Part shown: positions 12,701-18,700 of the stretch, in pieces
Numbering within the stretch: position 1 is the first letter of the stretch
How the letters are laid out: each line of letters opens with the position of its first letter
Source of the DNA: Escherichia coli
GTDB lineage: Bacteria; Pseudomonadota; Gammaproteobacteria; Enterobacterales; Enterobacteriaceae
Strand: one strand, 5' to 3'
Length of the DNA stretch: 64,000 nucleotides
NCBI RefSeq assembly: GCF_041886205.1
Contig: NZ_CP169029.1
Made by a program: the position numbers

Positions 12701-15700
12701 CAACGGAGGCTAATGGCATGAAATTGACGCTGAAAAACCTTAGCATGGCGATCATGATGAGTGGAATGATCATGGGAAGCAGTGCAATGGCGGCGGACAG
12801 CAACGAAAAAATAGTCATCGCCCATCGCGGTGCCAGTGGATATTTGCCGGAGCATACGCTGCCAGCAAAAGCGATGGCGTATGCGCAGGGAGCGGATTAT
12901 CTGGAACAGGATTTGGTGATGACCAAAGACGACCATCTGGTTGTCCTGCATGACCATTATCTCGATCGTGTTACTGATGTTGCCGATCGTTTCCCGGATC
13001 GGGCGCGCAAAGACGGTCGTTACTACGCGATAGATTTCACGCTGGATGAAATTAAGTCGCTGAAATTTACCGAAGGTTTCGATATTGAAAACGGTAAAAA
13101 AGTGCAGACTTATCCGGGGCGTTTCCCAATGGGTAAGTCCGACTTCCGGGTGCACACCTTTGAAGAAGAGATTGAATTTGTTCAGGGGTTAAATCACTCA
13201 ACCGGAAAAAATATCGGTATCTATCCAGAAATTAAAGCGCCGTGGTTCCATCATCAGGAAGGGAAGGATATTGCGGCAAAAACGCTGGAAGTGCTGAAGA
13301 AATATGGTTACACCGGTAAGGACGACAAAGTTTATTTGCAATGTTTTGATGCTGATGAGCTGAAGCGTATTAAGAATGAGCTGGAACCTAAAATGGGCAT
13401 GGATCTCAATTTGGTACAGCTGATTGCCTATACCGACTGGAATGAAACGCAGCAGAAACAGCCGGACGGAAGCTGGGTTAATTACAACTACGACTGGATG
13501 TTTAAGCCGGGTGCTATGAAACAGGTGGCGGAATATGCTGATGGTATTGGCCCGGATTACCATATGTTGATTGAGGAAACATCGCAGCCGGGTAATATCA
13601 AACTCACTGGCATGGTGCAAGATGCTCAGCAGAATAAACTGGTAGTGCATCCTTATACCGTGCGGTCAGATAAACTGCCTGAATACACTACTGATGTGAA
13701 TCAGTTATATGATGCTCTGTATAACAAAGCGGGTGTAAATGGGCTATTTACTGATTTCCCTGATAAGGCAGTAAAATTTCTTAATAAAGAGTAATGCTAC
13801 TGCAGGATGGCGTTCATGCGCCATCCTCTGCTAAAACGAAATAATGCTTCTACCGGTTATTCTATTCATTAACCGGTGCATCCTGTTAAAAAAGATGCCA
13901 ACATATTTGCGTAAAACTCATTCGTTAAGAAAGCTAACACTGGGCATTGTTATTCCTTAAACAGTATGAATTGGGTTCAATAATAAATTTTATTGCAGTT
14001 TATACTGTAAAGTATTATTCGTATTTCGGAAAAGTAAAGAAAATATTAATGTATCTTATTAATTTATCATATTGTTCTTGAGTGAATGCTGTTTGCACAC
14101 CTTCAGGACAATATTCACCAGTAATAACCAGTTGTCCATTGCTGTGTTGTACCATTAAACCTTTTTTTTCCTTTGGATCTTCAAACTTAGAATTATCAAA
14201 CGTGAAGATGTTATTTTCCTGTTTTGAGTAAGCAAAGAAATCTCGTGTATAGCTGAAACTATCATTTATTAATGGTGCTAACTTTTTGTCGGCGATATCG
14301 ATAAGCTCACCACTTAATTTATTGATGTATTTCATTTGATTCAATTTTTTCTGCGCTTGTACAATTTGCTCGTAGGTATTTTTAATTTTTTTAGAAGAAT
14401 TCTTGAATATATCATAGCGTTCCTCGGAGGATGTGTATTTGTACCCTTCTGTATTTTTCTCAGAATGTAATAGCAGGTCTGTATATTCTTTTTGTTTGCT
14501 GTGAAGTTGACTTTTAATACTTTCCTCACTGCTGATCTTATGATGTTTATCAGAGTCGTTTGTTTTTGAAATGTCTTTTTCTGTCAGTGTCTGGTCCGTG
14601 TTGTGGATATTTTCTTTTGCAACATGCTCATTGATGATGTTAATTGCAGCTTCATATTCATTTAAGTTTATTGTTCTTTCTGAAAGAAACCCTTCTTTGC
14701 TTTCGATACTCAAAACACCTTCGTTGTTTTCACCTCGGGTAAAGGTAAGGGTATAGGGTTCATAATCCGCTGCAAATTCATTTTTATACGTTATGACATG
14801 TTCGACAAAATGTCTTATTGGTACGAAACCATAACTGTGAACGTCAATTTCTTGGGTCTTGATGCTATCAATTGCATCTGAGGCTTTCGTGAAAAAAGCC
14901 AATAAATTAGCTATGTTGTCTGCTGAGGTTGATAACCCGTATCTACTTTGAGATATTTTTAGAAACTCATCGCAAAAAATCTCAAGTTTCGCGGTTTGTT
15001 GTGATTCTTTGTAAACTTCTACTGGTTGCAATTTATTATTTTGTAAAAGATTACAGCGAGATAAGTGAATAGATGTATTTGGCATAAATGATTCCTTGTA
15101 ATGTGAGTTAACAAGATACAATTTAATCTTTGCAGAATATATTCACTATCAAATTTAGCTCATTTTATTACGAAGACCTTTACGCATGTTAGAAAGTATC
15201 ATTATTGTTAATAAACACGGTAATAATTAACAAACAGATGTTTATAACTTCCCTGACAAGTTATTAGGTAACCCACTTGAAGATTGAGAATGGCTTCAGA
15301 GTAAACTGTGTACTGTTCGCCGGAGTGTCATTACTCTCAACAATCGGTTTTGACAGTGAGTCGGGCGCTTCATACCGGTTTCTACCTGGAGTCATTGTCA
15401 CTTCCCTAAACTGGATAAATATATATCGCTAATTCACAACGTGGACCAAAATCAGATGAAAACGCATTATTACGCATGGTAAAGCCTACAGGCCAACTAA
15501 GTGTGGCTAATCAGGCAATCTTACATTTGTCATCAATCTCATGTCTCACATCAAATTTTTCCACTCACCACGAGTTGTTCCGTACACGTTTGTAGTAAAA
15601 ACAGTGGACTGCCTTCTACCGGCTTTTCTTTAGCCAACAACGAAATCTGTCGATAGAAGGTTGGTTCGAGAGGAACGGAACACAATTCACCTGCAATGGT

Positions 15701-18700
15701 TTTCAGCGTTAACTCTGGTAATAAGGCGATGCCTAATCCCTGTCGAATAAAACTGATCGCTGTATCCGGGTGATTAAATTCGTATTTTATCTGCGGAGTA
15801 ATATTCTTTTCTTTAAATAACGCCATAATGCTTAATTCATAGCGCCCTTTACTAATAATCAACGGTTCCCCCATTAACTCTTCTACTGTAATAGTGCTGT
15901 TTTTTGCCAGAGCATGGTCGGGCGGTAACACTACGGTGAATTTATCCTGATAAATGGGCACGGAGTACATTCCACTCACCGGAAAATGAACAAAACCGGC
16001 ATCAATGGATTCATTCTGAAGCGAATCAATAATCGCTGTGCTATTTTCCTCAAAAGGAATAATTTTTATATTCGGATGATGGATTTCAAAGTAGCGAATC
16101 ACAACCGGTAAGATACAGGCGCAGACGCTGGGGAAACAACCAAGTCGCAGAGTTCTTTGAGGGTTCTGCTTTTCCTGTTCGGCTATCTCTTTTACTGCGT
16201 TAACTTCCCGATTAATGGCGCGCAGATGATGCACAATGCGGTGACCTGCTGTGGTCAGTTGTATAGCTTTACGGCGATCGCGTAACAGTATATTCACGCC
16301 AAGTTCTTGTTCGAGGGCAGCAATTGCCTGACTTACCGCCGACTGCGTCATGAACAATCGCTTGCTGGCTTCAGTAAAGCCACCGTAATCCAGCACGGCG
16401 AGTAAAGAATTTATTTGGGTAAGAGTCATTAGCGTTTACTAATCAATTATATTAAAACGATTAATTTCTCTAATAGCATGCCGCCATTTATACTTCTGTT
16501 CTGCAAAGTACATCACACTTTGACGCAACCGCAGTAACGGGAGTGTTGTCTGCGTGCGTCATCCTGACAGGCGGTAGGGTATGAAAGAGAAGTTATGGAC
16601 GAAGGATTTTTGGGCAATAACCATCATCAGCTTTATTATTTTCTTCGTCTTTTATGTTTTACTAACATTGTTGCCAATTTATATCTCTGACCGCTTGCAT
16701 GCCTCTCCTGATAAAGCCGGTTTGTTGGTGACTTTATTTTTAATTGCCGCCATTGTTATTCGCCCCTTTGCCGGGCAATGGGTGGGTAAATATTCGAATA
16801 AAACTATTCTGGTGCTCTCTTCTCTGGCCTTTTTGTTGGTCACTGCGTTGTATCCTTTTTGCCACTCAATTGAATCACTGCTTTTTATTCGGGTGCTTCA
16901 TGGTATTACCTTCGGGGTTATCACTACGGTAAAAGGAACGATTTCCGCGCGGCTGATCCCGGCCTCCCGACGTGGGGAGGGCATCAGTTTTTTCTCTCTG
17001 GCAATGGGGCTGGCAATGGTGGTCGGGCCGTGGATTGGTCTGAATATGGCGCGCTGGGAAGCCTTTAATCTGGCTTTCTGGCTATGCACCGGCGTGGCAG
17101 CGGTGGGGATTATCCTGTCGCTGATTATGACAGTGCCGCCGGTTATCAGCCATGCTGATGGTTCAAAGCCGAAAATGGGCTTCGCCGCCATGTTCGATCG
17201 CGCGGCGTTGCCATTTGCGATGGTCACCTTTTTTATGACCTTTTCGTATGCCGGGGTTTCTGCTTTTCTGGCGCTTTATGCTCGCGAACTTAACCTGATG
17301 TCGGCGGCCAGTAATTTCCTGCTTTGCTACGCCATCTTCCTGATGATCTGCCGTACTTTTACCGGCAATGTCTGCGACAAAAAAGGACCGAAATATGTGG
17401 TTTACCCTTGCCTTGTGTTCTTTACGGTAGGACTGGTGGTTCTCGGCTACACCCAGGGAAGCATAATGATGGTTGTTTCTGGCGCGTTGATTGGTATCGG
17501 GTATGGTTCCGTGACACCAGTATTTCAGACGCAGATTATCAGTTCAGTGGAGCCGCATAAAATCGGTGTCGCAAACTCTCTCTTCTTCAATGCCATGGAT
17601 GCAGGCCTGGCGCTAGGAGCCTTTGTGATGGGGATGATGGTTGCACATACTGGCTACCGGATGATTTATCTGCTGGGCGCACTATTAGTGGTAGTGGCTG
17701 GTGGAATCTATGCGCTGCAAATGAAGGGCAAAAGTGGTGTCACACTAGTAGCAGCAAAAGAAATTCATTAATACGACACGTTTCATTAAGACTTTCCTCA
17801 GGTAACCACCTATAGTCATTGTCGTTAATAAAACGACAGGCGATAGGATATGGCAGTTTCAGCAAAGTACGACGAATTTAATCACTGGTGGGCAACAGAG
17901 GGCGACTGGGTTGAAGAGCCTAACTATCGCCGTAATGGTATGAGCGGGGTGCAATGCGTCGAGCGCAACGGCAAAAAGCTGTATGTAAAGCGCATGACGC
18001 ATCATCTGTTTCATTCCGTACGTTATCCGTTCGGCCGACCGACGATTGTCCGTGAGGTTGCGGTAATTAAAGAACTGAAACGGGCCGGTGTCATCGTGCC
18101 GAAGATCGTTTTTGGTGAAGCGGTGAAAATTGAGGGTGAATGGCGCGCGTTGCTGGTGACTGAAGATATGGCGGGGTTCATCAGCATTGCTGACTGGTAT
18201 GCTCAGCATGCAGTAACGCCTTATCCTGACGAAGTACGGCAAGCCATGTTGAAAGCAGTGGCGCTGGCGTTTAAGAAAATGCATAGCGTTAATCGTCAGC
18301 ATGGCTGTTGTTATGTTCGTCATATCTATGTGAAAACAGAAGGTAAAGCAGAAGCTGGTTTTCTTGATCTGGAGAAAAGTCGTCGCCGCTTACGTCGCCA
18401 TAAAGCGATTAATCATGACTTCCGCCAGCTGGAAAAATATCTGGAGCCGATCCCCAAAGCGGACTGGGAGCAGGTGAAAGCGTATTACTACGCTATGTAA
18501 TCGTTGTAGGCCAGATAAGACGCATAAGCGTCACATCTGGCACTAAAACCAATTCACATCTCGATTTCAATATCGCCTTTTGCCCGGCAACAACAGGGCA
18601 AAATTTCCCCCGGCTGAATAAAGGCTAACGGTTCGGCAATCCAGTCCACCTGACCTGCGACCAGTCGGGTGCGACAGGAGCCGCAGTAACCTTCGCGGCA

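Follow-up and report, generated by a model that had tools for sequence, protein, structure and literature searches.

A full-length LysR regulator gene divergent from a putative efflux-type MFS transporter gene at the Escherichia coli yfaH locus, probably the ancestral form of a pair deleted in K-12

We analyzed a 64,000-nucleotide stretch of the Escherichia coli contig NZ_CP169029.1 (assembly GCF_041886205.1; hereafter the window), in which a gene for a LysR-type regulator and a gene for a major facilitator superfamily (MFS) transporter are transcribed divergently between glpQ and inaA. The gene order is glpT, glpQ, an orphan gene, LysR, MFS, inaA, yfaE, nrdB and nrdA; window coordinates are used throughout, and those of the individual features are collected in Table 1. 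An earlier note on this DNA had described an intact divergent pair, and our list of open reading frames (ORFs) gave the same positions and lengths, with a spacer of 151 bp. Our overall interpretation, which we regard as probable, is that this is the full-length, ancestral yfaH locus, in which a LysR regulator lies divergent from an efflux-type MFS transporter that it is predicted to control locally, and that the K-12 state arose from it by a deletion between 9-bp repeats.

The two ORFs are real genes and not chance ORFs, because they encode Pfam domains, because more than 1,200 complete E. coli genomes carry annotations of the two, and because the ratio of nonsynonymous to synonymous substitution rates (dN/dS) is 0.04-0.12 for both genes against their orthologues. 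The comparison with orthologues indicates that both are under purifying selection. In the regulator, the helix-turn-helix (HTH) domain HTH_1 (PF00126) covers residues 3-63 (E = 5e-18; 65 bits against a cut-off of 26.6) and LysR_substrate (PF03466) covers residues 88-267 of 292 (E = 1.4e-36), and its solved relatives include CysB, BenM and OxyR (1e-21 to 1e-15). The transporter matches MFS_1 (PF07690, E = 8e-60). The region from 13700 to 17900 is 100% identical to that of the non-O157 E. coli isolate wlxctx60. An Rfam scan of this same region returned only a spurious match to a eukaryotic long noncoding RNA (E = 0.28), and it therefore contains no known riboswitch or leader. Searches of the two proteins against PADLOC and PHROGs gave only two marginal PADLOC matches (E = 0.004 and 0.008), which we disregarded.

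Table 1. Features of the yfaH locus and its surroundings, in window coordinates
Feature	Position	Strand	Basis or remark
LysR-type regulator gene	15551-16429	-	292 aa ORF; intact
MFS transporter gene	16581-17771	+	396 aa ORF; intact
Divergent shared control region, 151 bp	16430-16580	.	sequence and cross-genus alignment of 17 loci
Conserved putative LysR operator block, 47 bp, three dyads	16428-16474	.	alignment
Dyad 1, ATTAG-N6-CTAAT	16428-16443		overlaps LysR start codon
Dyad 2, ATTAA-N5-TTAAT	16451-16465		
Dyad 3, ATTA-N7-TAAT	16460-16474		
-10-like element TATACT	16489-16494	+	sequence and alignment; 14 nt downstream of dyad 3
Second conserved spacer element, ATCACA..TTGACGCA	16512-16528	+	mean majority fraction 0.84; 6 invariant columns
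Segment kept in K-12 as yfaH pseudogene (LysR 3' end)	15539-15794	-	92% identity; blastn of MG1655 locus against window
Left 9-bp direct repeat, TTTATCTGC	15786-15794	+	at K-12 junction
Segment absent from K-12	15795-17664		
Right 9-bp direct repeat, TTTATCTGC	17665-17673	+	at K-12 junction
Low-GC block, 1,711 bp	13828-15538	-	GC profile; GC 31-36%
Orphan gene, 356/368 aa	14015-15085/15121	-	within low-GC block
glpT	11355-12713		neighbor
glpQ	12718-13794		neighbor
inaA	17850-18500		neighbor; followed by yfaE, nrdB and nrdA

The earlier note had described K-12 as carrying only a LysR remnant, yfaH, between glpQ and inaA, and both the MG1655 locus and a blastn comparison with the window agree with this. 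The sole content of the MG1655 glpQ-inaA interval is the yfaH pseudogene (b2238, 207 bp), which corresponds by homology to the 3' end of the window LysR gene; the match to the window then resumes at 17665, taking in the MFS gene's final 107 bp and, after them, inaA. In contrast to the window, the K-12 locus lacks both the orphan block and 1,879 bp that lie between the two copies of TTTATCTGC. Since the junction falls inside this 9-bp direct repeat, the K-12 state points to a microhomology or slippage-type deletion, which took ~210 N-terminal codons of the LysR gene (~72%), the entire control region and 361 of the 396 MFS codons (~91%) and left the yfaH pseudogene and the final 35 transporter codons. 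In the window protein, residues 226-292 score above the cut-off of the NCBIfam model PRK09729, which describes the 68-aa K-12 YfaH fragment. By homology, the window LysR gene is identified as the complete counterpart of the K-12 pseudogene yfaH.

We then asked how widespread each state is among 5,426 complete E. coli genomes. The segment absent from K-12 is present in 1,222 genomes (22.5%), the K-12-type junction in 3,133 (57.7%) and a clean "empty" glpQ-inaA spacer in 1,057 (19.5%), these three states together accounting for 5,412 genomes; the segment that K-12 retains as yfaH is found in 4,241. Presence of the segment does not equal intactness, because pseudogenes, a nonsense allele and insertion sequence (IS) elements all occur among the copies. 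In strain 042 the LysR gene is truncated, the MFS gene contains an internal stop and the orphan gene is frameshifted, and IS5 or IS1 insertions interrupt the pair region in some copies. An allele in which LysR codon 25 is changed from TTG to TAG (equivalent to about 16355-16357 in the window) is very common, including in Shigella sonnei, and occurs in more than 9,000 indexed blocks of an assembly collection; it is annotated as a 266-aa product starting at Met27, without the first part of the HTH, and the MFS gene beside it is intact (loci L048-L050). Taken together, the alleles compared indicate that the pair has been lost or broken several times within E. coli.

A highly divergent LysR-MFS haplotype was also observed in 102 genomes, for example in O145 RM12367-C1 (locus L046, 2754-4987). 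It is 84-87% identical to other E. coli alleles, and its flanks are ordinary (glpQ, inaA and nrdB 96.5-97.5% identical). Identity to outgroups is 79-81% for cryptic Escherichia and 76-77% for Salmonella and Citrobacter, with no close relative among those sampled. This pattern suggests either that recombination imported the haplotype from a lineage outside our sample or that it is a balanced allele of great age.

The history of the pair outside E. coli was examined in an outgroup scan that used one genome per species and the MFS protein as query. Orthologues of 80-93% amino acid identity were found in cryptic Escherichia clades, E. whittamii, Salmonella enterica subsp. arizonae and diarizonae, several Citrobacter, Kluyvera, Klebsiella spallanzanii, Superficieibacter, Phytobacter, Pluralibacter, Pseudocitrobacter and Leminorella. 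In these loci the MFS gene is paired divergently with a LysR orthologue (61-94% identity) between glpT/glpQ and yfaE-nrdB, the exceptions being Leminorella, which showed no flanking marker, and a truncated locus in Kluyvera sichuanensis. The pair is found at the same position in at least nine enterobacterial genera besides Escherichia, and its divergence resembles that of its flanks: between Escherichia sp. E1V33 and the window, identity is 86.8% for the pair, 88.9% for glpQ and 86.7% for inaA. None of the 1,235 places at which the pair was recorded was a plasmid copy, and no integrase, tRNA, IS or other mobility genes were found flanking it. Absence from the corresponding site of relatives together with mobility signatures, as a horizontally acquired island would have, is thus not what the comparison indicates. 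Given the outgroup synteny, the flank-like divergence, the dN/dS values and the lack of plasmid copies and mobility genes, we conclude from comparative evidence that the LysR-MFS pair is ancestral in Enterobacteriaceae and has been repeatedly lost in E. coli. The earlier note had proposed that the window preserves the ancestral or an alternative state, and this synteny supports the ancestral one.

By gene content and sequence identity, the pair corresponds to an already known locus, O-island 97 (OI-97, z3494/z3495) of O157:H7 strain EDL933. The same two genes lie divergently between glpQ (with the orphan gene) and inaA, and the order is unchanged in two O157 loci (L002 and L044), with amino acid identities to the window of 98.6% for LysR (dN/dS 0.055) and 98.0% for MFS, while the two-gene segment differs from that of the window at the nucleotide level (~96% identity). 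The Sakai equivalents are ECs_3121, annotated as an "antibiotic efflux protein" (MFS), and ECs_3122, annotated as "yfaH" (LysR). Published OI-97 primers for deletion and complementation match the O157 loci exactly, two of them also match the window exactly, and the one designed to delete OI-97 terminates at the right TTTATCTGC repeat. Wang et al. (2024) described OI-97 as a 2,006-bp island comprising z3494 (MFS) and z3495 (LysR), and called it laterally acquired (PMC10819331). In the literature, a search by name found yfaH only as an uncharacterized K-12 entry in two lists, and the relevant paper surfaced by Z-number. The novelty implied by the earlier note did not hold, as the pair is OI-97, carries the name yfaH in Sakai and is the subject of the 2024 paper, and its genes are in part well-characterized named loci. 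The observation of an intact pair is in this respect correct and ordinary, the locus having been catalogued as a difference between O157 and K-12 since the EDL933 genome.

To assess how the pair may be regulated, we compared the control region in a cross-genus alignment of 17 loci from about 10 genera. The block of three dyads next to the LysR gene has a mean majority fraction of 0.84, with 17 of 45 columns invariant, compared with 0.61 in the rest of the spacer, and is conserved to the same degree as coding sequence. This block, whose dyads have the geometry expected for the recognition and activation sites used by LysR-type transcriptional regulators (LTTRs), is likely an operator. The TATACT hexamer downstream of it is a candidate element of the MFS promoter, and the putative operator would overlap the -35 of that promoter. 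The second conserved spacer element sits downstream of the putative MFS -10 and may be bound by a different regulator or belong to a 5' leader. We also considered an operator common to this pair and its counterparts in Firmicutes and rejected it: Neobacillus LysR-MFS pairs have other dyads (TTAT-N7-ATAA), and there is no cross-phylum support for a shared site.

The locus resembles classical divergent LTTR pairs (e.g. BenM/CatM, CynR and OxyR) in the domains and size of the regulator and in its divergent target gene. A further likeness lies in the T-N11-A dyads near the regulator's own start, which in the window are a matter of presence in the sequence. Unlike the regulators of these pairs, the window protein matches no curated equivalog, falling far under the NCBIfam cut-offs for GltC, CidR, AlsR, CynR and HcaR.

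Several features of the transporter resemble those of drug:proton antiporter (DHA1-type) pumps such as NorA, CntE, YfcJ and YhhS, from which its best profile and structure matches come. Hydropathy peaks indicate about 12 hydrophobic segments, six per half. Two motif-A-like loops are present, a degenerate one (GQWVGKYSNK, residues 65-74) and a good one (GNVCDKKGPK, 262-271), together with the GP core of motif C (GLAMVVGPWIG, residues 143-153), a motif typical of MFS antiporters. The best NCBIfam model is PRK05122 (YfcJ/YhhS-like), at 111.9 bits against a cut-off of 374, so that the protein is not a member of this subfamily by the NCBI threshold. The best solved relative is NorA (8e-13), the likeness being confined to the N-terminal half, and other efflux-type best matches are CntE and a sugar efflux transporter. 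A CDD "MFS_YfcJ" domain match has been reported for Z3494 (PMC10819331). From these motifs and matches, the transporter looks like an efflux pump. The earlier note had called its substrate uncharacterized, and this stands: cluster members carry only the names "LysR family transcriptional regulator" or "MFS transporter" in databases, and deletion of z3494 gave no phenotype in a study that named no substrate (PMC10819331).

Firmicute homologues of the transporter (28-57% identity) are flanked by LysR or MarR regulators, Usp or unrelated genes, and LysR-MFS pairing recurs in Neobacillus homologues at ~35% identity. No catabolic gene lies beside the pair in any locus examined, and none is conserved beside the Firmicute homologues. 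The combined evidence favors a ligand-responsive regulator that would control a dedicated exporter.

Based on this anatomy, we propose the following mechanism. The regulator probably binds the conserved dyads of the ATTA-N7-TAAT type beside its own start codon, where it would repress its own promoter. On binding a small-molecule inducer, it would activate the transporter promoter, whose -35 is overlapped by the candidate operator, and the transporter would then export the inducer or a related compound by proton antiport. The reported activation of the enterocyte effacement locus (LEE) through rcsF in O157:H7 would represent a secondary recruitment of the regulator, given that genera with no LEE also conserve the module.

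Several observations weigh against the interpretation of an ancestral, locally controlled exporter module. A generic scan for sigma-70 promoters called no strong one in the spacer, TATACT included, and predicted promoters and terminators showed no excess over shuffled sequences. The transporter lies under the cut-off of every curated NCBIfam subfamily, and the efflux direction is for this reason read from motifs and context only; the first of its motif-A copies is, moreover, the degenerate one. The GC content of the LysR gene (~42%) is below that of its flanks and Firmicute homologues reach 55-57% identity, and because of these two observations an ancient transfer into the family, predating the sampled genera, is possible. 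Finally, the published chromatin immunoprecipitation sequencing (ChIP-seq) table for Z3495 (Table S4, PMC10819331) apparently uses K-12-like coordinates, as its glpA peak starts at 2,352,683 and glpA itself starts at 2,352,647 in MG1655, with Sakai glpQ at 3.08 Mb. Because of these coordinates, the OI-97 spacer could not appear in the table.

A different view of the regulator is that it acts mainly as a global or virulence regulator, through rcsF and the Rcs system to LEE, that the transporter is not its target and that the divergent layout is meaningless. Deletion of OI-97 or of z3495, and not of z3494, lowered LEE transcription, HeLa adherence and mouse colonization (PMC10819331). In electrophoretic mobility shift assays, MBP-Z3495 shifted the rcsF promoter and not the LEE promoters (PMC10819331). 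However, genera lacking LEE preserve both the pairing and the spacer dyads, and a LysR gene is paired with the transporter gene even in the distant Neobacillus homologues. The Z3495 ChIP enrichments are also low (log2 1.2-1.8) and fall mostly in highly expressed genes (rRNA, dnaK/J, ompA, ompC, pflB and ptsH), and rcsF is not named in the copy of Table S4 that we used (PMC10819331). Virulence and local roles are also not mutually exclusive. We consider it unlikely that the regulator has the former in place of the latter. The role of Z3495 at LEE may not carry over to the window strain.

It is also improbable, in our assessment, that the MFS protein is a nutrient importer of the symporter type whose substrate is sensed by LysR. 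Its weak NCBIfam matches include aromatic acid, lactate and sialate symporter families, and LysR regulators often control uptake together with catabolism. Against this, the pair has no catabolic gene with it in any locus examined, its best matches (PRK05122, CntE, NorA and the sugar efflux transporter) are efflux-type, the motif-C GP core of antiporters is present, and some homologues are linked to MarR.

A broader proposal, which we offer as speculation and hold to be rather doubtful, is that the module is an ancestral sense-and-export device for a gut- or host-derived small molecule, that the regulator was co-opted in enterohemorrhagic E. coli (EHEC) for LEE control via RcsF, and that loss in ~77% of E. 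coli reflects niche-specific selection and not neutral decay. If this were true, the identity of the ligand would be a new host signal for virulence control in EHEC.

We regard as very improbable the account, which is how we read PMC10819331, that the pair is a laterally acquired O-island gained independently by EHEC, enteropathogenic E. coli and some extraintestinal pathogenic E. coli, with K-12 in the original state: the pair is missing from K-12 and 77% of complete E. coli genomes, its distribution is patchy (with two clades per PMC10819331), the LysR gene has a lower GC content than its flanks and the 84-87% haplotype with normal flanks implies that recombination does import alleles at this site, but K-12 holds both gene ends joined at the 9-bp repeat and so bears a deletion in place of an empty site, the pair takes this same position in the other genera and in the cryptic Escherichia clades and has diverged as much as its flanks have, integrase, tRNA, IS and plasmid copies are lacking, and the routes of decay (the codon-25 nonsense allele, the 042 pseudogenes and the IS insertions) are independent.

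Our comparisons thus contradict the published view of OI-97 and argue for an ancestral module lost by K-12 and most E. coli, through one 9-bp-repeat deletion common to 58% of complete genomes and several independent inactivations. They are a reminder that "O-islands" include K-12 deletions. What the present analysis adds to the known locus is this correction, from acquired to ancestral and lost, and a defined candidate operator, the conserved dyad block being a concrete experimental target for the local function of Z3495 and z3494.

The orphan gene next to the LysR gene lies in a low-GC block whose insertion site is bounded by the terminator hairpin of glpQ and the stop codon of LysR. The block is present in 1,045 of the 5,426 E. 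coli genomes, co-occurs with the K-12-type deletion in strain EC27, and has no counterpart in E. coli locus L003 or in any of the outgroup loci compared. The orphan gene is often disrupted by IS1 or frameshifts, and its protein has no match in Pfam, NCBIfam, PADLOC or PHROGs. This distribution indicates that the block is an independent, later insertion, separate from the LysR-MFS unit. The suspicion of the earlier note that the adjacency may be coincidental is borne out, since the block is missing from many pair-bearing E. coli and from all outgroups.

On the other side of the pair, among the loci compared with the window (L007-L027), only those of Escherichia and Pseudocitrobacter have inaA separating the MFS gene from yfaE. 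The MFS gene and yfaE are immediate neighbors in the loci of Salmonella, Citrobacter, Kluyvera, Klebsiella, Superficieibacter, Phytobacter and Pluralibacter, so that the presence of inaA here is specific to certain lineages. Among the Firmicute homologues, the MFS proteins of Desulfosporosinus sp. FKB (L028) and Bacillus sp. EB600 (L030), both from position 6001 of their loci, have the N-terminus MKEKLWTKD in common with the enterobacterial protein. Their identity to it, 55-57%, is unusually high across phyla, a hint that the transporter passed from one phylum to another in the distant past. Lastly, a 3,474-bp contig of a metagenome-assembled genome labelled Collinsella sp. (L031) carries the orphan gene (92% amino acid identity), the LysR gene and a partial MFS gene (both 99%), and is almost certainly E. 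coli sequence that was mis-binned into an actinobacterial assembly.

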